Of a DNA stretch of 64,000 nt, positions 3,954 through 28,129 are shown in pieces; positions within the stretch are counted from its first letter, which is position 1; each line of letters starts with the position of its first letter. The DNA comes from Nematostella vectensis (lineage: Eukaryota), in the NCBI RefSeq assembly GCF_932526225.1, contig NC_064047.1, positions 1,817,027 to 1,881,026 on the forward strand, in the 5' to 3' direction. The position numbers and the translations under genes were made by a program. Below the pieces are notes generated by a model. The model worked only from the letters and a program-made list of their open reading frames with translations. It had not been told where the DNA came from and did not search any database.

Positions 3954-4250
3954 TTATTCATTCACTTCTGTGAGAAACTGACTTTCAATACTAGAGGGAA
4001 TCACCTCGAAAAACAAGTCATACTGCTGGTCTATTCCAAGATACGAGTCACTCATTAAGTACACCGTTAGGATTTTCCTCCCTTCCTCCTCGGGCGTGTA
4101 GAAGGATAGTGTAGCGGTGGTTGTCCCCTGGACAGGCCCAAGTCTCTTCAAAGCCATCAGCTCGCCCGTGTCAGTGTCTCCAAGCACCAGCCACCATCCT
4201 TCAGTCTGCACCTTGGGGAAGCACGGCGCGTGGACCTTGGCATCGGCTCC
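3954..4250 (-). CDS. ASCC3: ASCC3 terminal coding exon (GADAKVHAPCFPKVQTEGWWLVLGDTDTGELMALKRLGPVQGTTTATLSFYTPEEEGRKILTVYLMSDSYLGIDQQYDLFFEVIPSSIESQFLTEVNE*)
   Basis: Acceptor cattacag|. The stop codon TAA is at 3954-3956 (minus). An AATAAA on the minus strand at about 3835-3840 is a candidate polyadenylation signal. Confidence 0.85.
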   Translation of the reverse strand, partial: GADAKVHAPCFPKVQTEGWWLVLGDTDTGELMALKRLGPVQGTTTATLSFYTPEEEGRKILTVYLMSDSYLGIDQQYDLFFEVIPSSIESQFLTEVNE

Positions 4251-4862
4251 CTGTAATGATTTATCCAAGAAGGCGAGTCACGCCGCCATTTTTCCCTCCC
4301 GCACAATACCTATACTCACTAAAACAATCCATTTCCATCGGCTAATTCAAGCAAGTTACTAAGATACTTTCCATAAAATATCGTTAATAAGGTATAAAAC
4401 TTAAATAATGGGTGGTCATTTTGAAGTTTTCTTGCAAATAAACCAATGTATTTTCAATTGTAAACAATAATCAAGGAGTGGTTGATCGACACTCTTGATA
4501 ACGTGGGCGACGACAGCAGAAACAATGGACTTGGATTGAGAACTCAACAGAAGCACTTGAAAATGCGTGGCGTATTATGGGTTCCAGCCCTTTTCCACCA
4601 AACCACAACACGAAAACTCCAAGTTTCACGGTCTATTGATGAGGTGGACGTTCCTACGTTCGCTCGTGTAGAAATAATGTTCTTTGGCAACAAGTTTGGA
4701 ATTGAAAGCCAATTTTTTCCCTTTTTTTCGATCCTAATCGTCTTAGCGGTCGTCGTCGTCGTCCTTGCTTAAGGCACCTAATGTCGATCAGCCACCCAGT
4801 TGTTATTGTTTACATCTGAATACACGACGTTGTTACAGGAACAACAACAAAACACTGGTTAC

Positions 4863-5066
4863 CCGGAAGGAGGCACTGAGCCGCTTCAAACTAACTTTCA
4901 TTGCGTACTCCTGGTCAGCGTGCACAGTTACCCAGTTGTCATGGAGACCGACAAGATCCGTTCTGACAGGCTTCTCTGCTTTCTTCGCACCATCCCCTTC
5001 TTCCCAGGCTCCTCTCAGCTTGATTGACAGAGCGAGCATGGGGAGACGTCTGAGGACACTATGTAT
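4863..5066 (-). CDS. ASCC3: ASCC3 exon 33 (IHSVLRRLPMLALSIKLRGAWEEGDGAKKAEKPVRTDLVGLHDNWVTVHADQEYAMKVSLKRLSASFR)
   Basis: LHADQEY motif. Acceptor ttccccatag| and donor CGG|GTAACC. Confidence 0.8.
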
Positions 5067-5773
5067 CTATGGGGAAAAACACATGATCGCCTAATGAGCA
5101 ACCTTGAAAAAGGTAAATCACGCCGCCATTTTATGCTTTCACTCAATGCCAAGTCACACAAAGCATCCACTTACCTCGGCTAATTCAAGCAACTGAGAAC
5201 CTCTCTCAATCAAGTATCATTTATATAGTATCAGACTACAATCGTGGATGGTTATTTCGAAGTTTCCTTACAAGTTATCCAAGTGTAAGAAAGTATCCAT
5301 CTGCTGATATGGGAGGCCTATCTGAGATTTTCGATTGAATTTGACGAAAGAAGTATACAACTTTGTTTTTAAAGTTACGGGTGCTTTCAGACCACGTGTT
5401 ATACAAGGCCAGATAAATAACAAAACCTTTTTCTTCTACGACCGTAGGAGCGTGTTATCGCAGTAGAGGGTGTTAGTCAGACTCTTTGCAACAACTCACA
5501 ACCACGTTGATGCCAAACCCACCGAGCTCCTAACTTACGTAACAACGTCAGAAAGGCACATACTGTAATGTGGTAAAATCTCGAGATAACCATCTAAAAA
5601 CAAAGGTTAATACTAAATTTACCGACTCCAATAAAAAATATTACATTGGCTTCCCCAATTTAGCCGATGGAAATGGATCCTTTTTTCACACTTGGTACTT
5701 TGATAGAAGGACAAAATGGCGGCTGACGAGGCAGTTTAACGGCATTGTATTTTTCTCATTTGTCATTGCAAAC

Positions 5774-6043
5774 CTGCTCTATCTCCTGACTGGACACCAT
5801 GCCTCTCAGAGCATTGTCCAGGATACTCTTCCTGGCAGATACCGCATGGACCAACTCAGGTAGGCTTTGTATCTGGTCACCATTTGGCCTCCTGAAGCCT
5901 GATAGGTGTTGCGCCTGAATACCAGGAAGGGTGAGAAGGGAGCAGTCGTGTAACCAGCGTGCCTGGACAACCATCTGCCCAACGTGCATGATGCGAAGGG
6001 CGGTGGCCAGCCAGCCCTCGTCTGCAGCCACGTCAATCATGGC
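5774..6043 (-). CDS. ASCC3: ASCC3 exon 32 (AMIDVAADEGWLATALRIMHVGQMVVQARWLHDCSLLTLPGIQAQHLSGFRRPNGDQIQSLPELVHAVSARKSILDNALRGMVSSQEIEQ)
   Basis: Acceptor ttcccaag|. The 3' boundary is the least certain of the set, with a weak donor CAG|GTTTGC. Confidence 0.65.
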
Positions 6044-6414
6044 CTTGGGAATAGAAAGATAAGGGGCAACTTATAAATTACTCGTCACTTGTTAAATCGG
6101 TAAAATGTCACCAGTTTTACTTTCGGTAATTTGCGTAACAATATCTGATAATTTTTAACGGAAAACGCGAAAAATATTTCAAAATTGTAAAAGCAGTGTG
6201 TCTATTGGAAGTTTCTTTGAGGATGTGATGTGATAATTTAGAAAGGATGGCCTGTTAATAGATTCTTGTCTCTTGAGGTTTTCGTCGGTCCTCCCGAAAT
6301 TAACTGGTGACAATGCCGCCGCTTTAATTACTCGTCACTTTTAAACTACTCGTTGTAAATAACTCGTTACCTGTAAATGACTCGTCACTTGTAAACTACT
6401 CGTTGCTTGTTTAC

Positions 6415-6583
6415 CTGTAAAATCCGGATGGCCTGGTCAAGCACAGACTTCTGGTCAGTAAAGTAGTCACTACTTGGTAGCGCGAGTCTGCTGAAGTGCG
6501 CCTGGAACAGTAGGTTGGTCTTGGTGTGCGCACTGTCGAACGTGTGCGGGTTCACCTCCAAAGGCAGCTCTTTAGCAAGATCA
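6415..6583 (-). CDS. ASCC3: ASCC3 exon 31 (S DLAKELPLEVNPHTFDSAHTKTNLLFQAHFSRLALPSSDYFTDQKSVLDQAIRILQ)
   Basis: Second Sec63 unit. Acceptor ccgttcag| and donor CAG|GTAAAC. Confidence 0.8.
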
Positions 6584-7465
6584 CTGAACGGTACACAGTA
6601 AGCCAGTAAGCACGAACGGAACAGGGGCTGATGCAGGAGTACCAGAAAGAGGGGCGAAGCAAGGGTTTCAAGAAAGGAGTGGTGGGCGGATTTATTGTCC
6701 TTCCATGGATTTCCTTACATTTCTTGTCAAAAAGCCAAATATCTGAAAATAGGGGAGAGGGAACGGAGCCGCTCGGCCAGCCCCTAGACCCGCCCCTGCC
6801 TGATTCGCCATTCTTGCGTTGCGTGCGCAGGGACGATTTTAGGGGACGCAAATCTGGTAAACGCGTTGATTTAATTTTGACAGAAAAATTGGTAGGTTTG
6901 GTTAATTTTGCTACCGGGATATCTTAGCTAGTTGGACTCACGACATCAATATTGACAACATTCGACGCCATGTTGAATTACGTGCCCTAAAATGCTGTTC
7001 GCGTATAAACTCAACTCGGTCCCCGCGCAAAGTAAGAATGGAAAATAGGATTGTATAAGGAAATCACAGGTGGCCCAGGGGAGCGCGTTAGTAGCGTTTA
7101 GGGCCTTTCAACTCAGCTGAAACGGGTTCTATTCCCGGTCGAGACATGGTTAGTATCTCTCTGTTTCTTAGACCCGATTTTGACTTCTTGAGCTAACTTG
7201 AAGCCTATGTTTCACGGGCAATGCGTATTAGGATTTAAATGTGAAGTGCTATATATATTTTTTTAAGACAAGGAACAAGTGTCGATGTATCAGCCTTTAT
7301 AAACGCATAGATGTGTTTGAATACCTTTCATGACTGTGTAGTGTATTCTCAGCACAGCTTTTGAATAGATAACGACCGAAACGTCCTTTTGATAGGTGTT
7401 TACTACAGTGTAAACACGCAGGACCTCACTGACTTGACTAAAAATACCTTCGACATTCTTTTCAC

Positions 7466-7521
7466 CTGTTAATAGCGTCCTCATTATGCCGCACTGGGAG
7501 CTCACTGTATTCGTGGGCTTC
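7466..7521 (-). CDS. ASCC3: ASCC3 exon 30 (EAHEYSELPVRHNEDAIN-)
   Basis: The LPVRHNED motif is conserved. Acceptor ttttccacag| and donor AG|GTGAAA. Confidence 0.8.
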
Positions 7522-7669
7522 CTGTGGAAAACAGTCAAGTGGGTGTCAATATTGAAATCAGTAGAAAGTATTAAATCCTCCTGTTGACGATTAGAGACAC
7601 GACAAAACATATTCCGTAAAAAAAATCCACTTTGTGTCACACAAATTTATAAAACAAAGCATTACATAC

Positions 7670-7804
7670 AGATAATACTTCCAAGAGGTCAGGAAGGCTG
7701 CAGTCAGCGTGCAACCGCTCCTTTAGCATGCGCAGGGTGAGGTGATTAAGGTAGTAGTACGACGCGATGTGCGCAGCGGTGGTTGGCGACAACGATACGC
7801 TATC
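7670..7804 (-). CDS. ASCC3: ASCC3 exon 29 (DSVSLSPTTAAHIASYYYLNHLTLRMLKERLHADCSLPDLLEVLS)
   Basis: IASYYYL motif. Acceptor cattag| and donor TCT|GTATGT. Confidence 0.8.
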
Positions 7805-7899
7805 CTAATGGGGAAAAAAATGAGGACCTTTAGCAAAGAAGATAACAACATTGACGATTACGGCAAAAAATAAATTAGAATTCAATAGCACCACGTGAT

Positions 7900-8340
7900 C
7901 AGGCGAAGGAAGGGAGATCCACTTGTACCCCCCCCCCCCCCCCCCAGTATCCAGGCACCCCGATATCTCCACCCATACCCCAAAAGATATCACCGTATGC
8001 TTAACTCCCGAGTATCGGGACAGACCGACAATTCCGGCTCCGCCCAAACCGAAAGCCAGATCCACTTATTCGAAATCCGTGCCCAAATGTGAAAGTGGGG
8101 TGTTTACCTGGACAATAAAAAGATAGCTAGACGCCTACTTCTCCAATATCGGGACATACCGACAATAACAGGTAAACATAAATAGCCCCCAACTCCAAAT
8201 ACCCCTATGTTAAAGTTGGGTTTCTATCTCAACCACAAAAAGATAGACAGACGTATGCCCATCTCCCCAGTAGTGATACACCGATAATTCCAGATCCACA
8301 AAAACCTAAAGACACGCCACCCACTTAATCGAACTCCATA
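7900..8340. repeat. About 135-bp tandem repeat, 3 copies (…gatatcaccg…ccgacaattccggctccgcc…); a fourth partial copy overlaps the 3' end of ASCC3 exon 28
   Basis: Direct reading. Confidence 0.55.
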
Positions 8341-8367
8341 CCCCTAACACTGTCATTCACGCCAAAC

Positions 8368-8590
8368 CATGTTTAGTTAAAAAGGTTTTTCTTTGCCTGA
8401 TAACTTGCCAAGTTTCTCATTGTGTTGAATCCTTACTAGTTAAATAATCACTTAGTAACATGTACAGCATAGTCTATTCAATTTTGTTCTTGGTTCTGTC
8501 ACTCTTGGGAGAATGAGATTTAAACCAGTTTAATTAAACCACCTTTAAACTGGTTTAAGTGCTGGTGTGAATGCGGTATAAGTTAATATG
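8368..8590 (+). repeat. Interspersed repeat family copy 1 (about 225 bp, with a palindromic core TTTAAACCAGTTTAATTAAACCACCTTTAAACTGGTTTAA)
   Basis: About 85% identical to 54733-54960 in the same orientation. Both copies end in GGTGTGAATGCGGTATAAG. Confidence 0.6.
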
Positions 8591-8631
8591 GGGCTTCTAC
8601 ACAAACCACACAGAAAAAGACGTATACTAAC

Positions 8632-8869
8632 CTCTCCAGTATTGAGACAGCCCGATAATTCCAGCTCCGCCGCAGCAGACTCTACTAGCCGGGACAGGTA
8701 CTTATTAACGCTGTCATGGTCCGTGTCCTGCAAGTCGTAGTATGTCGGGTTCATGACCAGGCGACGGAAAAAGTACGTCCAGGTCATATAGTCCATGGCG
8801 TCCTGTTTGGACGTGATTGTGCCGGCCACTACCTCGGCGTTGAGATGGTCTGCTAGCACCTCCAGTAAA
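8632..8869 (-). CDS. ASCC3: ASCC3 exon 28 (S LLEVLADHLNAEVVAGTITSKQDAMDYMTWTYFFRRLVMNPTYYDLQDTDHDSVNKYLSRLVESAAAELELSGCLNTGE)
   Basis: Acceptor ttttccag| and donor GAG|GTTAGT. Confidence 0.85.
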
Positions 8870-9342
8870 CTGGAAAATGGTGTCGGTAGACAAATGATAG
8901 TAATGGTATTGGTGGACAAATGTTAGTGCTAGGTGCTACATCGGCATTGAAAGGTAAACTGTAAAATGATGTAGGTAGACAATAGCTAGAGTACCACCTA
9001 GACGTTAACATGGTCTGCTTGTACAACTCCAATGAACTAGCTCGACTAAATCATCATTTCCGACAATCATTACTTTTTAACCTTTATTCTACAGGGAATA
9101 GCTATTACTAATAGAAATGCTTGGGGGTGTGGCCAGGGGGACGGCTCAGGGGGAGCCCCCCCCCTTCCAGCAGGCAAAAATACAGTAAATCTATGATACA
9201 TTACTACATTACTTAAATACAGGAACAATGCATAATCTGGGCCTTTTTAGGCCACCTCCTGTAATAAATCCTGGCTACGCCCCTGATGGTTTATAACCGC
9301 AGGCTTCCCAACCACGTCATAAGCATGACAATTTAACCATAC

Positions 9343-9596
9343 CTCGACTCCACAGGAAAGGGCTCGTACAGGAACTTCTTATAAAAATGCTTTTTGACGT
9401 CATGCACTAAGATAACCGCTTTTCCCTGGTCATCGTACTGCGGGCGCCCGGCTCGTCCCATCATCTGCAGTACGTCAGTAATGGGGAAATCCACGTAGCG
9501 GCATTTCTTGCCGTCAAAGTACTCCGTGCCCTTGATGACCACGAGGTGGGCGGGGAAGTTGACACCCCAAGCCAATGTACTGGTGGCGATCAGGAC
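9343..9596 (-). CDS. ASCC3: ASCC3 exon 27 ([84 protein letters not shown]-)
   Basis: The [11 protein letters not shown] and [10 protein letters not shown] motifs mark the second helicase C domain. Acceptor cctag| and donor AG|GTATGG. Confidence 0.9.
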
Positions 9597-9849
9597 CTAG
9601 CAGGGAGAGCGAATTGTGATCAGGAGTGTGTCAAAAGGCTACCAGAAAATCTGTTCACCGAAAATTTGTTTCCGACAACCTAGCTGTTTACACTGACGAC
9701 CTCCTTTGTTTTCCGACAAGTTTATCACACTTAAAAGATCAAATTTACTTTCATTTTAATTTGAGCAACTCATATTATATGGAAACCGTGATAGGCGAAT
9801 GAGTTGTTGGTTGATTGAAGCGAGTTGAGTAATCATTACGAGAGGATGA

Positions 9850-10220
9850 TTCCATAACGGACATAATAATCAGGATCACAATCATCATCATCACAATTTT
9901 CATCGTCATCACATCAATAATCATTTGTCATTATCACCACTCCTATCACCATCATCAGTACCATCATCATCACCACCGTCATCATGAATACCGCCATCGC
10001 CATCGTCAACACCATCAGCATCACCATTATCATCATCTTCACAACCATCATTATCATCTCAATCGTCACCATCATAAACGTTTACTATCAGCATCAGCAT
10101 CGCCATTATCATCATTTTCACAACCATCATTATCATCACCATCGTCACCTTCACCACCACCACCACCATGACCACCAACATTATCATCACCATCGTCACC
10201 ATCATGAACGTTGACTGTAA
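9850..10220. repeat. CAT/CAC/CGT-rich low-complexity tract in the ASCC3 intron
   Basis: Direct reading. The His-rich ORFs on both strands are artefacts. Confidence 0.85.
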
Positions 10221-10226
10221 TCTGAC

Positions 10227-10364
10227 CTGGATCTTCTGGTTGACAAAGAGCTCCTCCACGACACTCCTGTCTCTCTCGTGCAGGCCCGCATGATGGAGAC
10301 CGATACCAAACGACAACACGAGCTTAAGGTTACTGTCTCGCACAGCGTGGAGGACTTGCTCCAT
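10227..10364 (-). CDS. ASCC3: ASCC3 exon 26 (MEQVLHAVRDSNLKLVLSFGIGLHHAGLHERDRSVVEELFVNQKIQ)
   Basis: GIGxHHAGL motif. Acceptor ccatag| and donor CAG|GTCAGA. Confidence 0.85.
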
Positions 10365-10619
10365 CTATGGATCAATGTCAGTAATTAGTCATGGGGGTAC
10401 AAGGTCGTAGAGTAGAGTAGAGAGTAGAGCCCCGCCCTGGACTAGCATTATTAATTTATTGTTAAAAAACCGATAACTGCGGCATGGACACTGATGTCCG
10501 GAGAGGTTAGGTTAAAAGAAGAAGATGTTGAAAACCAATATGTATGCGCCACCGAAAGCCAAATCTGAATACGATCTATTCGAACACATGCTTGAAAGGC
10601 CATATCGCGTCACGCAAAA

Positions 10620-11115
10620 CCTACTTCCTCTTCCTGCATGTCACGTCACGTGATAGTAACCTCCTTTTTTGGGCGGTCACGTCACACAGTACTTACCTCC
10701 TCTCCTCCATTTCCGCCAGGTGATGTATACCCTCTCTCCACCATTTGACGTCACGTGATGATTACCTTTTCTTCCGGTAAGTGATGTCACGTGATTTTTA
10801 CCTTCTCCCTCTGAAGGTGACGTCACGTGATGCTTACCTCTCCTTCCGGCATGAGACGTCACGTGATGCTTACCTCCTCCCTCTGAAGGTGACGCCACGT
10901 GATGCTTACCTCCTCTTCAGGCATGTGATTCTAAACTCTTCTTCAGGCATGAGACGTCACGTGATGCTTATCTTCACTTTCTTAATGTGACGTTACATGA
11001 TGCTCACCTCCTTTTCCGGTAAGTGGCGTCACGTGATTCCTACCTCTTCTTCCAGTATGCGGTGTCACGTGATTTTGACCTTCACCCTCTGCATGTGACG
11101 TCGCGTGATGCTCAC
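10620..11115. repeat. About 60-bp minisatellite (about 8 copies) whose unit is the ASCC3 exon-25 donor junction (minus strand GAGGAG|GTAAGCATCACGTGACGTC)
   Basis: Every unit carries an AG|GTAAGC consensus donor plus a CACGTG E-box and a TGACGTCA CRE-like palindrome. The array abuts the real donor at 11115/11116. Confidence 0.8.
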
Positions 11116-11379
11116 CTCCTCTTCAGGCATGTGCAGCCATTGCTTGGGGTCATCCTGGGCGGCCAGGAAGGCGATCAAGTCCAGGGCTGTTAGTCTGGTC
11201 TGTCTTCTGGACGAGACGAAGACGAGGGTGGGCTTGGTCGGAGAGTGAATCCGGATCGCCTCGAAAGTTGGCTTGTTCATAGTAGCCATACGAGGGCAGT
11301 AATGCTTGCCGGGAAATCCTGTGATGTGAACCTCAAGAGGAACAGGGCGAACTGAAGGTCGGAAGTTGAACATACCAGC
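11116..11379 (-). CDS. ASCC3: ASCC3 exon 25 ([88 protein letters not shown])
   Basis: The [16 protein letters not shown] motif is conserved. Acceptor tccccaag| and donor GAG|GTGAGC. Confidence 0.9.
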
Positions 11380-11939
11380 CTTGGGGACGAAATAAGGTGG
11401 ATAAGTGGATGTCACTGACTGACAGGCGTGAAATGCATGTTTGTATTCACATACAAATCTGTAAACAACATGTTACCAAGAGAACTTGATATGTTCAATG
11501 TGATAATCATAGCTACGCCACAAGGGATAGAGAGCACCACCATCTAGCTCTCCCCAAAACTCGAACTGAATTTTATAAAAAAAATCCCTGCAGGTTAATG
11601 GAGCCAAATTGTATAATATTTAGCCTGCAGGGGTGATCACTTCTAGGTCGCTTAGGTCGTTTAATTACCAAGCAAAAACAAAATAAAAAATAAAAATACT
11701 TTTCAAAGCATATTTTCAGGTTAGATTTAGGTGTTAATTTAAAAAAATTATGTTGTTTTTATATCTTTAAATTTTAAAATTGTAGCATATACACATTCTA
11801 TTTTCTTTTAAATTTTGTTTTCCAGGTCACCCATTAATATCAGCTTTGCTGAAGATATTTAACTGGAAAAATATTTGTAAATAATAAATACAGTCGTTGA
11901 TACCAGATAAGAAATCACTGAATACATCCAAGTACTAAC

Positions 11940-12097
11940 CGATCCGATCCCGAGCCAATCCGCCAGGTCCCGAGCATTAGCGAGTGCAGTCGACAGGCCA
12001 ACGACACGGACCTTCTTGTCGGTGTGTGAGGAGATGAAGTTAGTTCTTGATACGATCACCTCAAGGACAGGACCTCGCTCATCCCCCAGCAGGTGAA
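11940..12097 (-). CDS. ASCC3: ASCC3 exon 24 ([53 protein letters not shown])
   Basis: Second DEIH box and STALANA motif. Acceptor ctgttccag| and donor TCG|GTTAGT. Confidence 0.8.
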
Positions 12098-12419
12098 TCT
12101 GGAACAGACAGGTTTAATACTGGTTACAAACAGGTTTGACCAGCCCCAACCTCACCTCAACATTGTTGGCTTCAACAATCAAGTGATTAGGCTAATTTGT
12201 GAGCTGCGACAGCTGCGTGGTACGGGCTTATAAAACAAGGGGTAGACCTGAGACAGCTACGTGGTACAAGGGGTAAAGCTGGTGACTTGATGTTTGTTGT
12301 TTTAGGAAAAGCACCAAGCCACTCCCTTCTTCCCCAATCTCACAGCATCGAACTGCATCAGGTGAATAATCATGTCTTCATTTTCCTACTCAAACCAGTC
12401 CACATACAAAGTCCATAGG

Positions 12420-12746
12420 GTCGACCACAAAGATAACTAGTATGAGATCTGCCAGCTCTGACTGACGCTCAGCCCAACAAACCAGTTGCATACTAGTTTT
12501 ACAGGTTAAAGAATCTACCTCTTTAATAATAACCAGATTGACTTGTTTGACATAGCTAAGCGTCTGCCAGCTCTGACTGATCCCAGCCCGACAAGCCAGT
12601 TGCATACTAGTTTTACATGTTTAAATATCTACTTCGTCAATAGTGAGCAGATTGAATTGTTTGACATAGCTACGCGTCTGCCAGCTCTGACTGATCCCAG
12701 CCCGACAAACAAATTGCATACTAGTTTTACAGTTTTAAGTATCTAC
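12420..12746. repeat. 120-bp tandem pseudo-copies (about 3 copies) of the 3' end of ASCC3 exon 23 plus its donor (…SWQTRSYVKQVNLLIIDE|GTAGAT)
   Basis: The minus-strand copies read SWQTLSYVKQFNLLTIDE|GTAGAT and ...IIKE|GTAGAT. Confidence 0.8.
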
Positions 12747-12900
12747 CTCGTCAATAATAAGCAGATTGACTTGTTTGACGTAGCTACGCGTCTGCCAGCT
12801 TCGACTGATGCCGTCCCACTTCTCCGGTGTCGTCACGATGAGGTCAGCCTGGCTAATGGAACGCGAGTCTGGTGTGACGTCACCCGTCAGTTCTATCACC
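12747..12900 (-). CDS. ASCC3: ASCC3 exon 23 ([52 protein letters not shown])
   Basis: Acceptor ccgttgccag| and donor GAG|GTAGAT. The downstream intron carries 2-3 pseudo-copies of this exon's 3' end plus donor. Confidence 0.85.
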
Positions 12901-13067
12901 CTGGCAACGGAATTATCTCATTATCCCATGATAAGGTTATTGCTTGCAGCGTACTCGGGAAGCAATTAAATGTAATTGTCCATTTCTTGGATGCAGTTTT
13001 TGTGCGTTAAACTGAAGAAAAATGGTATATAAGAAAACAAATCTCAGTTCTGGAATAAAAAACGTAC

Positions 13068-13153
13068 CTTTTGCCTAGCTTTCGTCCAAATCGCACTTTC
13101 CAGTCATCCATGCGCTCCCTCACGAGGGCCTTCAGAGGCGCAATGTAAACAGC
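13068..13153 (-). CDS. ASCC3: ASCC3 exon 22 (AVYIAPLKALVRERMDDWKVRFGRKLGK-)
   Basis: Acceptor ttttacag| and donor AG|GTACGT. Confidence 0.85.
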
Positions 13154-13439
13154 CTGTAAAAGGACAAAACAATTCATCTGACCTTTGATTCTTTAAAATA
13201 AAACCTCCCACATGATATGCTACCCAAAGGCCGGTTCCTAGATGGCAGGTTAGCCTTAACACACGGATAAATCGGCTATCCCGACATTTAATTGTACAAA
13301 AAGCGCATCCATCCCTGACTTAGCGTTAGCATGCTTTCTAGGAATCCGGCCCAGTACTTCTAGTGCCTCGGTCATTACTCGGCATAGAAGTAATTTGAGA
13401 TGTGCCTCGTTATTATGAGGGCATGACTGGGTACTGGGT

Positions 13440-14095
13440 TCGGGAGTGACTCGATACTATTCGGGTGTGACTCGATACTATTCGGGAGTGACTCGATACA
13501 ATTCGGGAGTGACTCGGTACAATTCGGGAGTGACTCGGTACAATTCGGGAGTGACTTGGTACTATTTGGGAGTGACACGGTACAATTCGGGAGTGACTCG
13601 ATACAATTCGGGAGTGACTCGTTACAATTCGGGAGTGTATCGGTACGATTTGGGAGTGACTAGGTACAATTCGGGAGTGACTCGGTACAATCCGGTAGTG
13701 ACTCGTTACAATTTGGGAAGTGACTAGGTACTATTCGGGAGTGACTCGGTACAATTCGGGAGTGACTCGATACAATTCGGCAGTGAATAAGTACAATTCT
13801 GGAGTGACTAGACACAATTCGGCAGTGAATAAGTACAATTCAGGAGTGACTCGTTACAATTCGGGGAGTGACTCGTTACAATTCGGGGAGTGACTAGGTA
13901 CAATTCGGGGAGTGACTCGGTACTATTCGAGAGTAACTCGAGTTCGTATTATTTGGGAGTGACACGGTATTATTCCGGAGTGACTTGGTACTATTCGGCA
14001 GTGACCCGGTACTATTCGGCAGTGACTCGGTACTATTCGGCAGTGACTCGGTACTATTCGGCAGTGACCCGGTACCATTCGTGTGCATTTAACTG
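13440..14095. repeat. 21-30-bp minisatellite (GGGAGTGACTCGGTACAATTC)n, more than 20 copies, starting just 3' of the exon-21 donor
   Basis: Direct reading. The unit does not contain the junction. Confidence 0.8.
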
Positions 14096-14106
14096 TTTAT
14101 GCATAC

Positions 14107-14229
14107 CTTTGCACCAGGATACTTGTCGAACAACCTGAATATAGCAAGCTCGGCGATGATGGTCTTGCCTGAGCCGGTGGGCGCCCCTAGCAGCACATTG
14201 TGGTCAGAGTTGTACACGGTGTGGAAAAC
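14107..14229 (-). CDS. ASCC3: ASCC3 exon 21: second cassette Walker A ([41 protein letters not shown])
   Basis: The [10 protein letters not shown]-loop is present. Acceptor cctttag| and donor AAG|GTATGC. Confidence 0.9.
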
Positions 14230-14399
14230 CTAAAGGAATAGTGTATATATGGTAAATTTCAACTGCGTCATTATAAATGCCAATTTGGACCTTAGCAACA
14301 ATGACGAAAACGTGGACGAAGACGGCAGAAAACAATGAAACGGGATTATGAATAGCAGCAGGTAAAAAGGCGTTCTGATAAATTTCAGTTGATGCTGTA

Positions 14400-15154
14400 T
14401 TGCGTGATTTCAAGTTGTGTCGCGTGATGTCACGGCCGTCTTACGTGGCCATACGTATCTGTACGAGGATTGGGTGCGTGGCTAGCTTTGTTGCGTGACG
14501 CAATGGCGTTGTATTGCGTTATTCCAAGCAATGTTGCGTGACGTCACAATGCTGTATTACGCAACCATATGTTGCGTGACGCCATGGTGCTGTATTGCGT
14601 GATTTCAATTAATGTTGCGTGACGTCACGGTATAGTATGGAATCACGGGTGGCCCTCTCAACCCTGAATTTCACTTGTTGGACGTATGTGAGCTTACTAG
14701 AAGCTCGTGTTCCTCAGTTCCAAGATGGGTCATTATTAATACATTAGGATTTTAAATGTGAAGCGCTTAGAACATGGTTGATATAAGCGCTACATAAATG
14801 TCAATTGAATTAATTAATTTAATTATTACGCGACCATACAGTGCCTGTATCTGTACGGGGTTATGTTGCGTGACGCCATGGTGCTGTATTGCGATGATTT
14901 TTAGTAGTGTTGCGTGACGTCACGGTGCAGTATTGCGTGACAATACAGTACCTGCATCTGCACGGGGTAGTGTGCGTGACGCCACGGTGTAATGTTTGAA
15001 TTCAAGTAGTGTTGTGTGACGTCACGGTGTAGTATTACGTGACAATACAGTACCTGTATCTGCACGGGGTTGTGTTGCGTGACCTAATGTTGCAGCATCG
15101 CGTGATTTCAAGTAGCATTGCGTGACATCACGGTGTAGTATTACGTGACCATAC
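14400..15154. repeat. 60/120-bp minisatellite (about 6 copies) built from the ASCC3 exon-20 donor junction (minus strand AACCCCGTGCAGATACAG|GTACTGTATTGTCACG, i.e. …NPVQTQ|GT)
   Basis: Each unit repeats the last 18 nt of the exon plus a GTA donor and a TGACGTCA motif. The array abuts the real donor at 15154/15155. Confidence 0.8.
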
Positions 15155-15421
15155 CTGTGTCTGCACAGGGTTGAAGTGCGTAAACTTGTAGAGCAGCTCG
15201 TAGCTGACATTGTGTAGCGCGCTGATGGGCAAGGGCTGTAGGTCTAGTAGCTCAGTGTGCGGTGGATGTCTCTCCGGGAGGATCAAGTGCTGGAAGGAGA
15301 TAGCGCACACAGTCTCCGCCCCAAGCCACCGGTCAGACACTGCGTGTACGTAGTACTGAGGGGGGAGGGGTTCGAAGATAGGGATGGTGAATACGAGACT
15401 CTGGGGCTCCTCTGATAAGAC
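15155..15421 (-). CDS. ASCC3: ASCC3 exon 20 ([89 protein letters not shown])
   Basis: Near-identical to ASCC3 residues around SDRWLGAE...[14 protein letters not shown]. Acceptor ccttgtcag| and donor CAG|GTATGG. Confidence 0.9.
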
Positions 15422-16136
15422 CTGACAAGGAAATAAAAAAGCGTATAAGGAAAGACAATGACATGCGGTGGCACACAACAATGGGGATACAATGCGTCAC
15501 GTACATCTTGGCCTTTTATCCCCCATCTTATCTCCGCCAAATCAAGGCGTATAAAATCTGACTTATCTAGAATGAGACCGATTGCGCCCTGGAAACCAAA
15601 GAAGGTTTTCAGCCCAAGGCTAATAAAATCTGCTTGACTATCTCTGAAATTAAATTAACCGTACTGGAAAAAACTCCATTTCACTGCTAAAGCATCAAAT
15701 AATAAATGTGAATTAAATTTCCATCATCATTCCAGATCATTTTAACGAAGCTGCCTACAGTTTTCAAGTAGCTATAGCGCTCATGTTTAAAGGGTCACAG
15801 TTTGCGCAAAGCTTGGAAGATTAAGTCCAATTTGTCAAGTGAAGGATTGAATTTTCGAAAATATGTGAAAGGTTGTTATTTGAGTTACCACAGCTGCCAA
15901 GAAATGGATAAAATTCTTTCCTAACCATACCCCTTTGACAAAATTAAGACGTCTCCACATATTTAAAACAACGGTGTTACGCCAGTCGAATCCAGATCCC
16001 CTGTTTACCAAGTCCCGAGTCCGTGTTTATCGAATCCAGATCCCATGTTTACAAAATCTCGAGTCCATGTTCACCGAATCCCGAGTCCATGTTTACCGAA
16101 TCCATATCCATCATTTACCAAATAGCCGCCGCTTAC

Positions 16137-16387
16137 CTGCTTTTTCTGCAGTAACAGGTACTCGGAATGATAGATGTGAGAGTTCTCCGGGTCCTCGACC
16201 CAGATCCACCACGGCTCACTGCTGCCATGAGCCCGGTCATTCCACTCGAACTCAGCGGTAATCGTAAGGCGCACGCGCAGAACTGTTCGTGTGATTGGCT
16301 GAATGCTCGCTGCTATGGAAATGGCGGGAAAACGATTGACGCAGCTCTTAACGGTATGCCCCATACGCACGTGGTGGACCAGGTGAC
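16137..16387 (-). CDS. ASCC3: ASCC3 exon 19 (GHLVHHVRMGHTVKSCVNRFPAISIAASIQPITRTVLRVRLTITAEFEWNDRAHGSSEPWWIWVEDPENSHIYHSEYLLLQKKQ)
   Basis: The EPWWIWVEDP motif is present. Acceptor gatctcag| and donor CAG|GTAAGC. Confidence 0.85.
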
Positions 16388-17560
16388 CTGAGATCATAAT
16401 GAAAGGGTGTATAATGTGAGATACGAACACATAATCAAGGGGTGTATAATGTGAGATACGAACACATAATCAAGGGGTGTATAATGTGAGATACGAACAC
16501 ATAATCAAGGGGTGTATAATGTGAGATACGAACACATAATCAAGGGGTGTATAATGTGAGATACGAACACATAATCAAGGGGTGTATAGTGTGAGATACG
16601 AACACATAATCAAGGGGTGTATAATGTGAGATACGAACACATAATCAAGGGGTGTATAGTGTGAGATACGAACACATAATCAAGGGGTGTATAGTGTGAG
16701 ATACGAACACATAATCAAGGGGTGTATGATGTGAGATACGAACACATAATCAAGGGGTGTATAATGTGAGATACGAACACATAATCAAGGGGTGTATAAT
16801 GTGAGATACGAACACATAATCAAGGGGTGTATAGTGTGAGATACGAACACATAATCAAGGGGTGTATAATGTGAGATACGAACACATAATCAAGGGGTGT
16901 ATAGTGTGAGATACGAACACATACTCAAGGAGTGTATAGTGTGAGATACGAACACATAATCAAGGGGTGTATGATGTGAGATACGAACACATAATCAAGG
17001 GGTGTATAATGTGAGATACGAACACATAATCAAGGGGTGTATAATGTGAGACACGAACACATAATCAAGGGGTGTATAGTGTGAGATACGAACACATAAT
17101 CAAGGGGTGTATAATGTGAGATACGAACACATAATCAAGGGGTGTATAGTGTGAGATACGAACACATAATCAAGGGGTGTATAATGTGAGATACGAACAC
17201 ATAATCAAGGGGTGTATAGTGTGAGATACGAACACATAATCAAGGGGTGTATAGTGTGAGATACGAACACATAATCAAGGGGTGTATGATGTGAGATACG
17301 AACACATAATCAAGGGGTGTATAATGTGAGACACGAACACATAATCAAGGGGTGTATAATGTGAGATACGAACACATAATCAAGGGGTGTATGATGTGAG
17401 ATACGAACACATAATCAAGGGGTGTATAATGTGAGATACGAACCCAAAATTAAAGGTTGTATAATGTGAGATACGAACACATAATCAAGGGGTGTAGAGT
17501 GTGAGATACGAACACATGATCAGGGATGTATGGTGTGAGATAGGAACTTAAGATCAGGGG
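16388..17560. repeat. 40-bp minisatellite (GGGGTGTATAATGTGAGATACGAACACATAATCAA), about 29 copies, filling about 85% of the intron between exons 19 and 18
   Basis: Direct reading. The unit resembles the last 20 nt of that intron (cattatgatctcag). Confidence 0.85.
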
Positions 17561-17738
17561 TGAATAGTGTCGAATACCGTCGGCGGAGGGGGCGGGAGAG
17601 AAGAGATAATAGGGAGAAGACGTCTTCTCACTCCTTTCCCTTCTCTCCACCCCCCCCCCCCCCCTTCCACCGCCCTTTTCAACCGGGACGCCCTGGGTTT
17701 CAGAGGATGAAGACATGTGGAGTCTGCTATTTTCCTAC

Positions 17739-17964
17739 CTATTTCCTCAGGCACCATATCTCGTAGTTTTTCTAATGAAGCTTTACGTCCTTCTAGTTTA
17801 TTGAGAATCTCGGGGCTTAAGGTGGTGAACTGTTTCAGCGGATGCTCCTCTGGCCATAGCCTCTTTTCGATGCATTTACTCAGCGTCAGTAGCCTGTTTG
17901 CTAACACAGGGTACCCACGCCTCAGAGCAATCTCGAATAATCCTCGAATCAGACGAGCGCCGTT
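17739..17964 (-). CDS. ASCC3: ASCC3 exon 18 (NGARLIRGLFEIALRRGYPVLANRLLTLSKCIEKRLWPEEHPLKQFTTLSPEILNKLEGRKASLEKLRDMVPEEIG)
   Basis: Acceptor ttacctccag| and donor G|GTAGGA; leaves in phase 1. Confidence 0.8.
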
Positions 17965-18636
17965 CTGGAGGTAAAGAGAGCAGTATTTAATAATAACATT
18001 TATAATTTATACCGCGCAATTTTTTTAAATTGAAATGTCAAAATATTTCAATATGTTCAAATGCACAAGGAGAGGTACAGAGCTTGAAAAGGGCAGCTTC
18101 ATGGTAAGAGCTTTGCAATAGCTCTCCGGCCCTGACACAAAGAATTTCAGCCAAATTCTAATATTGAGCCTTTGATATTATGTGGGAGACCTGAATTTAA
18201 AAATTCAAAGGAAATGACCACAAACTGTTAATAAACATAGTTTTCAATAAATTATTGCATATTATTTTACGAAGGCATTGACAGCTTAAAGTTTAAATGC
18301 TTGTAGACAATTAAAAGCCTAAAATAAACAGTGACCCAAGACATGCGCAGTACCTGACGCTGCCCCTTTAAAAGGTTTTTTATTTGATTTGCGTAAGAAG
18401 TTGTTGCCTTGTTTTAAATATTTGAAACAAATAATTCCACACATCTTCCCACAACTCTTAGCGGTGCGCGCGTGGAACTGAGGATAATTTTGACGCCTCG
18501 TTTTCACGCGCACGTCGCAAAGAGTTGTGTGGAGAGGTGGGGAGGGTGAACATAACTAAATCCTGCGAAAGCACAGGTAAGTACCTTTATCCATGAAGTT
18601 TAAGATAATCAGGTTATTTTGTGTTACGGTTTTCAC

Positions 18637-18816
18637 CTGCGCGACGTAGCCGAGGTCGGATACGAGGGAGAATGACTCTACCCTGCCACGGCTTATGTAG
18701 GTCTGCAGAAGAATGTTCACTTTGCCATAAGTATTCTCCACCCCTCCCTTGACGGGGATGACGACACAGTCCTCGTGGAGATGCTCCTCCAGCTCCGACA
18801 GCTCGTCCTCGCGCAC
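18637..18816 (-). CDS. ASCC3: ASCC3 exon 17, first Sec63 unit (VREDELSELEEHLHEDCVVIPVKGGVENTYGKVNILLQTYISRGRVESFSLVSDLGYVAQ)
   Basis: The GGVEN..GK.NILLQTYISRG motif is present. Acceptor tgacag| and donor CAG|GTGAAA. Confidence 0.85.
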
Positions 18817-19151
18817 CTGTCACGCAACACATGGTAAGGTCATGCTATACCCAAACGATCAGGTCACACAACAAAGCTACTGTTCAGTTGCGCAGTTCTT
18901 AAAATAGTCAGGGGGCAGATATAGGAAAATTCAGGTTTCGCTCAACCCTCACCACAGAAAACATATAAAGCTGAATCTTGTAGAACGAAACCCTTGAACA
19001 ATGCTAGCAAATATATAGTGTCAATAAAAAGATATGTGTTTTATTGCGTCACTCGTTGTCCTGCTTATTAACGAGTACGAAGTAGAAAACATAAATACGA
19101 TAAGGAAAGGGAACATTTTCCTTATAACGTTTCCTGATAAGTGACGTAAAT

Positions 19152-19437
19152 CAGGGGCGGATACAGGGTGGTGGATTGGGTGGATATCCACCCCCCCCTT
19201 TTTGAGTAGAAAAATTGAAAAATCACTTTGTTTAAAAAAATATATGTGCGATGGACAGGAGGAACTGTCCATGTTCCTTCGCCTGCTTGACTTTGCTGTC
19301 GCGACATATCCAATTCAGCGTAAAGTATTGTTAGATCCATGTGACCTACCATGTGAAGTACCACAGAATCAGTTATAAGCCGTCTAGCCGGCCATTATCC
19401 ACCCCCTATTTTGAAATTCTGGATCCACCCCTGTAAA
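19152..19437. mobile_element. Small MITE-like element with imperfect TIRs CAGGGG(C/T)GGAT..
   Basis: Left end aaatCAGGGGCGGATAC, right end GGATCCACCCCTGtaaatt, with an internal GGTGGATTGGGTGGATATCCACCCC palindrome. Confidence 0.35.
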
Positions 19438-19484
19438 TTAATATGTCACAGACCCAGATATCAGGCACATGTCTCAGGCCCTAC

Positions 19485-19571
19485 CTTAATTTGCTCAAAT
19501 TCGCCAGCGTGTGACAACATCTCCAGGATTTCTGGCATTGCAAGGTCTGGACGGAACCTCTCGTTGAATTC
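19485..19571 (-). CDS. ASCC3: ASCC3 exon 16 (EFNERFRPDLAMPEILEMLSHAGEFEQIK)
   Basis: Acceptor tgtgtag| and donor AAG|GTAGGG. Confidence 0.6.
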
Positions 19572-19625
19572 CTACACAGGAAATCACACATTAAAGGTGT
19601 GAACAAATAAAAGCTCAGCACAACC

Positions 19626-20040
19626 ACCACAAGTGGCGCGATAGCTCAGTGATACGGGCTTCGCTTCTCAAGCAAGAGGGCGGGGGTCCGAACCCTGGTC
19701 AGATCAACTGATCAAGGATTTTTTTCAGAGGTGTAAATAGACTTGGCTCTCTACACTGGTGACTGTGAATCCCTCATCTTCTTGGATAAGGACGTTAAGC
19801 CGGAGGTCCCGTCACTCATCGCACATCATTAACCTGTATTGGGAGACGTAAAAGAACCGCTGGGGACGCTGGCTCGTGGTACCATCTTCAGTGACAATGC
19901 TTACAAACTAACTCACTCATGATTGTAAACTGCGTGGAGCAGTCCGTATCTACACACTGACGAGTGTGAGCATTTGATCATTTCGTTTGTTAAAGTGCGC
20001 TATACAAATGACAAACATTTTAGCGAATGCTAAGAAACCT
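19626..20040 (+). mobile_element. tRNA-derived SINE (tRNA-like head with A/B boxes, a body, and a conserved GTGCGCTATACAAATG tail motif)
   Basis: GGCGCGATAGCTCAGTGATA...GGGTCCGAACCC resembles a tRNA A-box and B-box, but the acceptor stem does not pair, so this is not a functional tRNA. Tail motifs of the same type recur at 7225-7260 and 14745-14810. Confidence 0.45.
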
Positions 20041-20339
20041 AGATCAAACTTAAGGCTATATTTTTTTTATGACTCCCTCATTATCAAACAAATCTGTCAT
20101 CTTTTGTACAGTATGGTTTTAATGCTGTACAAAAAGTCAAAACAGCGACCGAAACCGATGTAAGCTATTCGTACCTTTACTCGAACGATTCAACACTGAG
20201 ATTTTGTTTGTTCTCGCCAGAACACGCGCATGCGCATACGTTATTAAGCACTGTCCGATAACATTATACTTGATGCAACACGGATGCGCGGTAGGTAATT
20301 CCTTATTTCCTAAAAAAATATCATACTTAATAAAGGAGT

Positions 20340-20882
20340 CGCCGTGTTAGTGAAGTTGGCTGGTCCTTACCTCGATAGTATCGAACTCGATGTAGAAGTG
20401 ACTGGTCGTGTTATCAAGGTCGGCTGGTCCTTACCTCAATAGTATCGAACTCGATGTAGAAGTTTCTGGTCGTGTTATCGAGGTCGGCTGATCCTTACCT
20501 CAATAGTATTGAACTCGATGTAGAAGTTACTAGTTGTGTTATCAAGGTCGGCTGGTCCTAACCTTAATAGTATCGAACTCGATGTAGAAATTTCTGTTTG
20601 TGTTATCAAGGTCGGCTGGTCCTTACCTCAATAGTATCGAACTCGATGTAGAAGTGACTGGTCGTGTTATCGAGGTCGGCTGGTCCTTACCTCAATAGTA
20701 TCGAACTCGATGTAGAAGTAACTAGTCGTGCTATCGAGGTCAGCTGGTCCTTACCTCAATAGTATCGAACTCGATGTAGAAGTTACTAGTTGTGTTATCG
20801 AGGTCGGCTGGTTTTTACCTCATTGGTATCGTACTCGATATAGAAGTGACTGCTCGTGGTCTCAAGGTCGCCTGGTCCTTAC
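20340..20882. repeat. 60-bp minisatellite (about 9 copies) built from the ASCC3 exon-15 donor junction (minus strand …TTCTACATCGAGTTCGATACTATTGAG|GTAAGGACCAGC)
   Basis: Units read FYIEFDTIE|GTAAGG, against the real exon end FYIKYDTIE|GTAAGG. Confidence 0.85.
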
Positions 20883-21047
20883 CTCTATAGTATCGTACTT
20901 GATATAGAAGTGACTGGCCGTTCTACCGAGGTCGGTGGCTGACAAGTAGCCTTGCTCCTCTGCAAATCTGATCATACGGGCCTTGTCCAGTTTACGAGCA
21001 GTCGACACTATCAGCTGCCGTCTGTAATTCTCGAGTGTCGGGTCATC
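20883..21047 (-). CDS. ASCC3: ASCC3 exon 15 (DDPTLENYRRQLIVSTARKLDKARMIRFAEEQGYLSATDLGRTASHFYIKYDTIE)
   Basis: Acceptor ttttcaag| and donor GAG|GTAAGG. The real donor is the first in a ladder of about 10 tandem donor copies. Confidence 0.75.
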
Positions 21048-21818
21048 CTTGAAAATAACAGAATGTTCAACAGGTGAATTTCTCTCATTTGGACGAGTTA
21101 GGCCTAGATTAAGCGGCCCACCAGATTCGCAACACCCTGATGCTCTAGAAAACGTTAGACAGGTTTATTGCACAGGAAATTGAGTCCATGAGGTGGTTTA
21201 TTGTCGTTTTGTGGGACCGGTCTATGGTCGGACAGAACGAAGCAGAACGGCACGACGCCTGGACATGCGACTCTGGTGCCTTGTTAAATCTAGGCGTTAG
21301 ATTCTTTATAGGCAAGGCAATCAAAACGTTGGATTTTTTCATACTAGCAAATACCAAGTTTGAAAGACTATTGCAATATTACGGTCGGGCTTGGTAAATG
21401 AAGAGTGAAACTTTGTTTCTAGATTAATATTTCAAAGTTTCATTACATAATTCATGTTGCTATGTTGGATGAAAAAGGTTTGGCCGAATTGGCCTATTTC
21501 TGTCAAACCCTCAAAAACCCTCTGCAGTCGGTATTACCCAAGTGATGGGGCTAAAACTGTGATTCGAATATGTTAGGAAAAAGGTATAATTATGCGATGA
21601 ATCTGCGATTTATTCTTAAAATATACAGTTTATATAGCGCGCAGAACCAAATGCTAAGACAGGTACTCATGATTCAAGTTGAACTAGTTTGAATATGAGT
21701 TTCACGAATGATCAAACTTGATCAAACTTTAAATGATTCAGTTTAAACTTGTTTCTTCAAATTTTACCAGCCTTGAAAAAAATACAGAACAAAAGTGAAG
21801 AAAGTTAATACAACGAAC

Positions 21819-21938
21819 CTCTTTATCCTTGTGAGGAATTCCATAGACTAGAGGGTTCTTGATCATTCGTATGTACAGGTAAGAGTAGCTCAGCCATTCC
21901 ACCGCTTCGTTTACATTAGTAACAGTACCAAGACAAAT
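21819..21938 (-). CDS. ASCC3: ASCC3 exon 14 ([40 protein letters not shown])
   Basis: Start of the winged-helix/Sec63 region. Acceptor cttgtag| and a weak donor GAG|GTTCGT. Phase 0 on both sides. Confidence 0.6.
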
Positions 21939-22400
21939 CTACAAGACAATGTATTACTTGAATGCGGCCTAGAAAGTCAAGTCTGAAAAAAAGGGGTGAT
22001 CATGGGATGTATAATAATCGTGTAGGGTCGAATAGTTATTCCACCGCTTCGTTTACATTAGTAACAGTACCAAGACAAATCTACAAGACAATGTATTAGT
22101 TGAATGCGGCCTAGAAAGTCAAGTCTAAAAAAAAAGGTTGATCATGGGATGTATACTAATCGTGTAGGGTCGAATAGTTATTCCACCGCTTCGTTTACAT
22201 TAGTAACAGTACCAAGACAAATCTACAAGACAATGTATTAGTTGAATGCGGCCTAGAAAGTCAAGTCTGAAAAAGGGGTGATCATGGGATGTATACTAAT
22301 CGTGTAGGGTCGAATAGTTATTCCACCGCTTCGTTTACATCAGTAACAGTACCAAGACAAATCTACAAGACAATGTATTATTAGTTTGGTGCGGCCCAAA
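21939..22400. repeat. 120-bp tandem repeat (about 4 copies) built from the ASCC3 exon-14 acceptor junction (minus strand ttgtcttgtag|ATTTGTCTTGGTACTGTTACTAATGTAAACGAAGCGGTGGAA)
   Basis: Each unit contains the acceptor plus the first about 45 nt of the exon. Confidence 0.85.
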
Positions 22401-22670
22401 ATAGAAAGATGATCGGATGTACTGATTGAGTAGGGGTACCATACCAACGAGAGTTGAAGGGAGAAGGAAATAAATAGGGATAATTCGAGTAAAGTACAGG
22501 AGGTGATAAACGAGGGAGAATGACACAGCAAGCACTGCGACAAAGTAAAAACGCTCAGACAATTCAAAGAGTGAACTTGGCGACATGGAAAAACATAGCG
22601 TGGGCAGGTGGTAGAGCAAAATAAAACCGAGAAGAAACATGACACACGGCACAAAGATTCCGAATATTAC

Positions 22671-22895
22671 CTCTGCATTAAGACTGTCAGTTAAGCTAGC
22701 GGTCAGCGTACTCTCGATTGGAGCCTGCCTGGTCAGCAGTGATAAGTAATGTGACAGTCTGTCATGCGCAGTGATGATTGTCCCTTCACCGAACTTGTCG
22801 AACTGCGGCCGACCAGCACGTCCAAAGATCTGTAGAACATCCAGGATGCCAAGATCCACGAACGAGCCCTTCTTTGCATCGTACACCTCTGTACC
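22671..22895 (-). CDS. ASCC3: ASCC3 exon 13 ([75 protein letters not shown])
   Basis: The [12 protein letters not shown] arginine finger is present. Acceptor ttttacag| and donor GAG|GTAATA. Confidence 0.85.
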
Positions 22896-27960: not shown

Positions 27961-28125
27961 TAAATGACTACGTAGATACCATTTTCGTAATCATCACTAC
28001 AATAATTATCATTATGATCACCGTCATCAAAATCGTTTTCTTGTATTCAGATCAGTATGTTTCCGGTATTTTCAGAACAATCACCGTCATGATGATCATC
28101 ATCGACGTGATCATGAACATTACCG

Positions 28126-28129
<4 letters not shown>

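Follow-up and report, generated by a model that had tools for sequence, protein, structure and literature searches.

When an exon is followed, within its own intron, by near-copies of its end and of its splice donor, does the transcript gain alternative exon ends, or are the copies a by-product of duplication that splicing has to ignore? The question is raised by one exon of a helicase gene in the window, by which we mean the whole 64-kb stretch of DNA that was analysed. To answer it we had to establish what the gene is, what the repeat consists of, what use of the copied donors would do to the protein, and whether this junction stands alone.

Database matches to the spliced peptide identify the host as an ASCC3-like gene on the minus strand, which bears out the assignment in an earlier note on this DNA. 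The matches are ASCC3/SLH1-type helicases with DEAD, Helicase_C, Sec63 and WHD_SNRNP200 domains, the homologues named ASCC3 carry PF00270, PF00271, PF02889 and PF23445, and the nearest named ASCC3 proteins in the spliced-peptide search were those of Lingula anatina (83%) and Dreissena polymorpha (84%). Exon mapping was seeded by tblastn with a human-ASCC3-like guide sequence, used for seeding only; the map itself is based on the window’s own uninterrupted ORF, its GT-AG sites and the retrieved homologues. The 29 mapped exons (32386..3954) join into an uninterrupted 1758-aa ORF that runs to the stop codon, with GT-AG at all 28 introns, and several further exons lie upstream. ASCC3/SLH1 Ski2-like helicases are recognised by two DExH cassettes with WH/Sec63 modules after each, and both helicase cassettes are present in the 1758-aa model, with DEVH and DEIH boxes.

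Intron 6 of the gene, 4.2 kb long, holds two plus-strand ORFs (23864-24223 and 24478-24774) that read LAVADL, ERSYAV and NSAVNVLVY, hallmarks of rhodopsin-type GPCRs. They could belong to an intronless receptor gene, or to a pseudogene, nested in the intron.

The exon that bears the array, numbered 23 in the earlier note, is the 18th of the 29 mapped, labelled e17. It and its neighbours are as follows, a slash marking a splice junction here and below.

12747..12900, minus strand: ASCC3 exon e17, coding (R)VIELTGDV...SWQTRSYVKQVNLLIIDE, placed by the 29-exon spliced model and ASCC3 homology
12099..12746, minus strand: intron after e17, 648 nt, phase 0, between the codons DE and IH
11940..12098, minus strand: ASCC3 exon e18, placed by the spliced model, beginning ATTCAC

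Exon e17 ends within helicase motif II of the second cassette, after the DE of DEIH. Its true end (...LLIIDE) is at 12747 and the G of the donor at 12746, and the reverse-complement reading directly after it is GTAGATACTTAA. The 648-nt intron has the donor GAG/GTAGAT and the acceptor ctgttccag/ATTCAC, and joining 12746 to 12098 in the 29-exon spliced model gives back the ..IIDE/IHLLG.. protein.

A tandem array with a period of 114 bp (38 codons) and 3.2 copies spans this junction on the minus strand (12448-12812). TRF called it at 12448-12809, with 87% matches, no indels and a score of 561, and the homology truly starts at 12812 rather than 12809. When the e17 intron was compared with the 64-kb window by blastn it gave self-matches with E = 2e-86 and 2e-61. 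The tandem repeat at the e17 junction is thus far beyond chance, and the pseudo-copies of exon end and donor described in the earlier note do exist. Each unit consists of 66 nt of exon end (GISRSWQTRSYVKQVNLLIIDE), GTAGAT and 42 further intron nucleotides.

12699..12812, minus strand: repeat unit 1, authentic, with 66 nt of exon (12747-12812), the real donor and the first 48 intron nt
12585..12698, minus strand: repeat unit 2, with pseudo exon end GISQSWQTRSYVKQFNLLTIDE and decoy donor GAA/GTAGAT, G at 12632
12471..12584, minus strand: repeat unit 3, with pseudo exon end GISQSWQTLSYVKQVNLVIIKE and decoy donor GAG/GTAGAT, G at 12518
12445..12470, minus strand: truncated unit 4, GAGCGTCAGTCAGAGCTGGCAGA, about 25 nt, placed by alignment

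Several dimensions in the earlier note have to be corrected. It spaced the copies at 120 bp, or 40 codons, where TRF gives 114 bp; it gave each copy the last 18 codons of the exon, where there are 22 exon codons followed by 48 nt of intron; and it ran the feature on to 12420, where the repeat stops at 12448. Its three in-frame pseudo-copies survive as a repeat but not as a number, the intron holding two full pseudo-copies and a stub of ~25 nt. The peptide it quoted, SWQTLSYVKQFNLLTIDE, fuses parts of two copies, the actual readings being SWQTRSYVKQFNLLTIDE in copy 2 and SWQTLSYVKQVNLVIIKE in copy 3.

Full units 1-3 are equidistant, with 14/114 differences in every pair (~12%). First, second and third codon positions are all affected in the pseudo-exons, with amino-acid replacements among the results (R>Q, V>F, I>T, R>L, L>V, D>K), and the pattern of substitution is, on this evidence, that of unconstrained sequence. 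All three units include the 48 nt of the intron side, and as every copy therefore has the donor and those intron nucleotides, the duplication must be younger than the donor. Repeat units make up the first ~300 nt of the intron; decayed remnants possibly reach ~12380, some 370 nt in, a weak and marginal signal in which 15/300 shuffles reach the unit-versus-tail score. No dispersed copies of the e17 intron were found by blastn in the 64-kb window. We rejected an introner or transposon as its identity, as that search of the window matched just its own repeats.

Decoy donors 12632 and 12518 lie 114 and 228 nt downstream of the real donor. The earlier note had offered them as alternative donors at 120 and 240 nt; the extra downstream donor motifs are real, the distances are not. 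We scored them with a PWM built from this gene’s 28 donors, which have a mean of 7.6 (sd 2.9) and carry G at -1 in 27 cases. The real donor, GAG/GTAGAT, scores 6.55. The decoy of unit 3 is the same as the real donor from -3 to +6 and also scores 6.55, while that of unit 2, GAA/GTAGAT, has lost the G at -1 to A and scores 0.35.

The spacing is a multiple of three, as the earlier note had emphasised, but the coding significance that it implied does not follow. Extensions of 114 and 228 nt keep the frame but read VDT-stop after three codons, at an in-frame TAA in intron positions +10 to +12 (12737-12735) that the earlier note had overlooked, and a further in-frame TAA, likewise overlooked, stands at the equivalent place after decoy donor 2 (12623-12621, reading VDI-stop). 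Because the first TAA is the fourth intron codon, any extension ends at VDT-stop and gives no protein isoform. Judged from the reading frame, use of a decoy would give either a protein truncated inside helicase motif II or an NMD-targeted message. The earlier note also held that the copies lack acceptors, and this stands: with a PWM from this gene’s acceptors, in which real sites average 6.5, no usable acceptor for the decoy donors was found, the best intronic AG scoring at most 3.7 and none being placed to pair with a decoy. A cassette exon made from the pseudo-copies was rejected because no acceptor in the e17 intron scored adequately. On its sequence, then, the array cannot be expected to yield a cassette exon or an in-frame isoform.

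The earlier note treated the array as a one-off, and it is instead one of about nine in the same gene. About 9 of the 28 mapped introns have junction-anchored arrays, at donor or acceptor, of up to 13.5 copies. Eight of the 17 TRF arrays within the gene overlap a splice junction (5 donor, 3 acceptor), and there is one decayed case besides. Probes of 24 nt from the exon edges, with up to 5 mismatches allowed, matched in the adjacent intron only, with 0 matches in the other 27 introns. The identities of the junction arrays span 65% to 98%, which indicates that the duplication process is ongoing. The others in this gene, and two in a gastropod orthologue, are listed here.

30593..30808, minus strand: donor-anchored array, 68 bp x 3.2, ..ARTLRQ/GTAATC, exon end 30791
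29181..30404, minus strand: acceptor-anchored array, 91 bp x 13.5, 98% identical
27753..27965, minus strand: acceptor-anchored array, 45 bp x 4.7, ttgtctcttcag/GTCATGGTGTTTGTTC, exon start 27777
21896..22380, minus strand: acceptor-anchored array, 142 bp x 3.4, 96% identical, ..cttgtag/ATTTGTCTTGGTACTGTTAC, exon start 21938
20343..20935, minus strand: donor-anchored array, 64 bp x 9.3, ..SHFYIKYDTIE/GTAAGG followed by 8 decoy donors
14824..15172, minus strand: donor-anchored array, 102 bp x 3.2, ..FNPVQTQ(V) CAG/GTATGG
10746..11133, minus strand: donor-anchored array, 36/72 bp, about 10 units of CATGCCTGAAGAGGAG/GTGAGCATCACGTGACGTCA, exon end 11116
L004 3365-4605 and 9987-11307: two junction-anchored arrays in the Lymnaea orthologue

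The largest of these, at 29181-30404, has a unit of 29 nt of intron 3' end (..ttgtag/) and ~62 nt of exon start, and its last copy runs on as the real exon from 29243. About 13 near-perfect decoy acceptors lie ahead of the real one, and by this arrangement only the last copy should be able to give correct mRNA. Six of the eight decoys in the array at 20343-20935 are identical to the real GAG/GTAAGG, and its period is not a multiple of 3. The copies at 14824-15172 read CAG/GTAC, CAG/GTAC and CAG/GCAC; TGACGTCA recurs in the 102-bp units there. Each ~36-bp unit at 10746-11133 contains CACGTGACGTCA, some 10 times in all, an E-box overlapping a CRE-like palindrome.

The exon end ..CTGGAATTATCGGGCTGTCTCAATACTGGAGAG/GTTAGT recurs in three diverged copies 300-600 nt into intron 22 (7995-8320, minus strand). 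They are not contiguous with the junction, and their donor positions are mutated (GAG/AT, GAA/GT, GAG/TT); from these remains they look like an old, decayed junction array. Neither of two long arrays, at 16395-17547 (35 bp x 33) and 13439-14081 (21 bp x 30), includes exon sequence; the first ends 7 nt short of an acceptor (exon start 16387), and the second begins 25 nt past a donor (14106). Minisatellites are dense throughout the whole window. The region upstream of the gene, 47000-64000, is almost all tandem arrays, among them 28 bp x 16, 69 bp x 10.5, 44 bp x 38, 50 bp x 16 and (TGGCGA) x 93 at 63001-63561.

In Lymnaea stagnalis ASCC3 (L004) one array, 95 bp x 13, carries ..VSDMAYVAQ/GTAAGT, each unit ending tttatttcag, and another, 58 bp x 23, carries CCTCACACAG/GTAGCA. 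Exon 8869-9042 of the Lymnaea sequence seems to be duplicated at 9828-9998. In Lingula anatina ASCC3 (L003) an exon with its upstream intron flank occurs twice, at 8656-8832 and 9577-9753, ~920 bp apart; the two copies are identical in the stretches inspected, and either the whole exon is truly duplicated in tandem or the duplication arose in the assembly.

Are splice junctions hotspots for these arrays? We compared their placement with a null model of random births, in ‘collapsed’ introns, of duplications with the observed periods. This model expects 2.8 junction-overlapping arrays against the 8 observed (P about 0.001). Setting the ancestral introns to 150-200 nt raised the expectation to 5.5-6.7 and the excess was gone. 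Overall the excess is 1.2-3 times, with P between 0.001 and 0.32 according to the ancestral intron length that is assumed, so that enrichment at junctions is suggestive and model-dependent. Under these models short introns and frequent minisatellite birth would explain most of the pattern.

The intron that holds the e17 array is in an unusual position. Lingula and Lymnaea have a phase-1 intron that splits the Gly codon of HLLG (TTA G/GTATGT and TTG G/GTAAAT), 13 nt downstream of the window’s phase-0 site, and the phase-0 position at DE/IH was found in no other sampled species. The sequence ..DEIHLLG.. is uninterrupted in 118 of the best 120 matches to the three-exon peptide, and the genomic fragments inspected among these, together with L001 and L002, are single exons with an intron at neither site. 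Among 93 short genomic matches to e17 alone, 75 stop right after DEIHLLG, where that phase-1 intron lies, about 12 break at YVQ/V and none has a DE/GT reading. P0315 was considered as a case of a break after DE and rejected, since the exon there has no intron and the apparent break is a frameshift of 1 nt. In L001, which at 90% aa identity in e17 is the closest relative found, both flanking introns are in common with the window and neither the DE/IH nor the phase-1 intron is present. The most economical reading of these alignments would be that the old phase-1 intron was lost and a new one then gained nearby in this lineage, and it is in this sense that we infer a polarity of loss then gain.

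The array itself does not explain such a gain, since every copy already has the donor and 48 intron nucleotides. Nor does the rest of the intron resemble exon. In the tandem-duplication model of Rogers the new intron repeats the neighbouring exon sequence in rotated order, and a duplicated AG/GT supplies its donor as well as its acceptor; the ancestral junction here, GAG/ATT, is without GT, and neither the 48-nt part nor the 350-nt 3' tail is exon-like. When these two were compared with the flanking exons, 92 to 418 of 500 shuffles reached the observed score, and in a further test 72 to 514 of 1000 did so; similarity to the flanking exons or the spliced junction was not significant. One candidate trace of exon in the tail, ATTCACCTGATG at ~12367, matches the next exon’s first 12 nt at 11/12 and was rejected as not significant under four scoring schemes.

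A coarse comparison of HSP boundaries touched on another junction, e14/e15 at 15155/15154 (..FNPVQTQ V/FHTVYN), where the intron seems to be absent in L002 and Lingula, and Lingula instead has an intron near ..HPPHT/E. This may be a second lineage-variable intron, also with a junction array.

We consider it probable, at about 0.78, that the e17 array is a ‘mirage’, a neutral product of slippage or unequal exchange whose decoys are ignored or cleared by NMD. Replication slippage or unequal exchange would have copied a 114-bp junction segment (the 66 exon nt, the 5' splice site, the 48 intron nt) head-to-tail at a time when the intron was already in place. Re-duplication would have brought it to about 3.2 copies, and the further copies would now be neutrally drifting intron sequence. 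The remainder of the exon adjoins the most upstream copy alone, so only the donor of that copy gives ...IIDE/IHLLG.... It seems likely that the decoys are normally skipped, the most upstream of identical 5' splice sites being chosen as in the F7 IVS7 VNTR, and it is from this analogy that we infer their silence in ASCC3. If a decoy were used, the TAA at intron +10 would make the transcript an NMD substrate. The array codes no isoform and needs no function. Very active minisatellite formation together with short introns would provide a background on which many junction-overlapping duplications arise and are tolerated. Against a neutral origin, decoy 3 is still a perfect copy of the donor despite ~12% divergence, which could hint at retention, in a sample of two decoys only; and the excess of arrays at junctions may mean that a model of purely random placement is incomplete.

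A different history would make the repeats a relic or agent of the birth or remodelling of the intron, the DE/IH intron being a recent lineage-specific gain made through break repair with templated copies of the flanks or through the ‘mirage’ model of intron creation. Its position, unique among the sampled species, fits such a birth, as do the flanking introns of L001 with none between them and the repeat units that fill the first ~300 nt, and Ebner et al. predict mirage-derived repeats in newly created introns (PMC3087553). Yet each copy already has GAG/GTAGAT and the 48 nt of intron, the 48-nt part and the tail are without significant similarity to the flanking exons, and the 3' end of the intron is not exon-like, contrary to the Rogers model. 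Loss in the relatives could also give their intronless site. The gene’s other arrays, in the coarse HSP-boundary comparison, appear at intron positions found also in at least one relative, which would mean that arrays arise without intron gain. We regard birth of the intron with its repeats as unlikely. A broader version is tentative and doubtful: the DE/IH intron would be a recent gain following loss of the ancient phase-1 intron, which is lost also in the closest sampled relative, and junction minisatellites, being over-frequent, would feed intron turnover (birth, shift and growth) in minisatellite-rich invertebrates including molluscs and amphioxus.

The decoys could also serve regulated unproductive splicing, decoy 3 and more weakly decoy 2 giving PTC transcripts through which NMD tunes ASCC3 expression. 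Decoy 3 matches the real donor from -3 to +6 and has the same upstream exonic context, and a TAA follows within 12 nt. However, this is one of about nine arrays of very different ages and periods, which argues for a mutational origin rather than a designed switch, and decoys are silent in the experimentally studied analogues, so we hold such regulation to be quite improbable. Exon-extension isoforms from the downstream donors, of the kind made by the IFI6 minisatellite donors, would need units that are a multiple of three and free of stops. The 38-codon unit has the first property, but the VDT-stop reading, with one TAA as the fourth intron codon and another following decoy 2, refutes them on sequence, and an insert here would break helicase motif II; we give them practically no chance. 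A repeat falsely expanded in assembly would be in keeping with how error-prone tandem repeats are, and four exact ORF look-ups matched neither a second assembly nor a transcript of this species. Artefactual expansions are near-identical, whereas these copies are 12% apart with private substitutions, and similar arrays of many identities occur across the gene and in Lymnaea; an artefact is very improbable.

Taken alone, the e17 array is one more junction-spanning minisatellite with no coding consequence; such minisatellites are already known and named, and this is another instance. Taken as a whole, this essential helicase gene puts splice-site choice to a natural test: where as many as 9 near-identical donors follow one another the spliceosome must take the first, and where as many as 14 near-identical acceptors do so it must take the last. 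The locus could be used to test the part of junction repeats in intron gain and growth, and to test ‘first donor / last acceptor’ rules beyond mammals. It is also a warning for annotation, as such arrays give many plausible but false splice sites and pseudo-exons. Three things are noteworthy: how many arrays this gene carries at donors and acceptors alike, the occurrence of such arrays in a mollusc, and the unique position of the host intron.

Among known systems, the creation of introns by internal tandem duplication (Rogers 1989; Gao and Lynch 2009; the potato RdRp case, PMC4974935) is alike in that splice signals are duplicated inside a gene and exon-derived sequence becomes intronic. In that model the new intron is a duplicated exon segment bounded by the duplicated AG/GT, whereas in ASCC3 the donor and 48 nt of non-exonic intron predate the duplication and the 3' end is not exon-like. 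The human F7 IVS7 37-bp VNTR is closer in form. Its first unit spans the exon 7/IVS7 boundary, and its identical 5' pseudo-sites are silent, the most upstream site being selected in a 5' to 3' choice (Borensztajn et al. 2006, PMC1557585). There, as here, a junction-spanning minisatellite puts 5' pseudo-sites after the authentic donor. The unit is 37 bp in F7 and 114 bp here, the F7 evidence is mammalian and from minigenes, and one ASCC3 decoy is already weakened in an array known from sequence alone. The minisatellite in exon 2 of IFI6 (6-16/G1P3) reportedly carries multiple splice donors (Turri et al. 1995, cited in PMC2572611 and PMC4526556). Its 12-bp units are said to be in frame and stop-free, the extra donors being used to give protein isoforms. 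Both repeats span a junction and multiply donors, but the stops in ASCC3 make extension unproductive.

The best match is with amphioxus, where minisatellite-like tandem duplications of exon/intron boundaries were named ‘mirages’ and described in the globins BflGb6 and BflGb9 (Ebner et al. 2010, PMC3087553); a further mirage, at Adh3, is cited there to Canestro et al. 2002. Both 5' and 3' boundaries are duplicated in mirages, with units 81-100% identical, copy number varies between haplotypes while splicing is undisturbed, and mirages were proposed as possible makers of new introns (PMC3087553). The same structures occur in lancelet PGBD5 and TnC (Pavelitz et al. 2013, PMC3902484). The e17 array has the three structural features of a mirage: head-to-tail units of minisatellite size (period 114, 3.2 copies, no indels), exon-derived sequence with splice signal and adjacent intron in each of units 1-3, and an authentic terminal unit, unit 1, that runs upstream into conserved exon. 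The likeness extends to unit length and identity (tens to about 160 bp and 81-100% in amphioxus), to the duplication of both boundary types, to the possibility of several arrays per gene and to the rule that the authentic copy is the one joined to the exon. That splicing is undisturbed and that length varies are amphioxus data, whereas the ASCC3 array is known from one sequence alone. With Lingula and Dreissena as the sources of the nearest named ASCC3 proteins, the present host may be something other than a cephalochordate. Junction arrays are also found in Lymnaea, beyond amphioxus, and their density in ASCC3, about 9 of 28 introns of one gene, is above that of the single-locus amphioxus reports.
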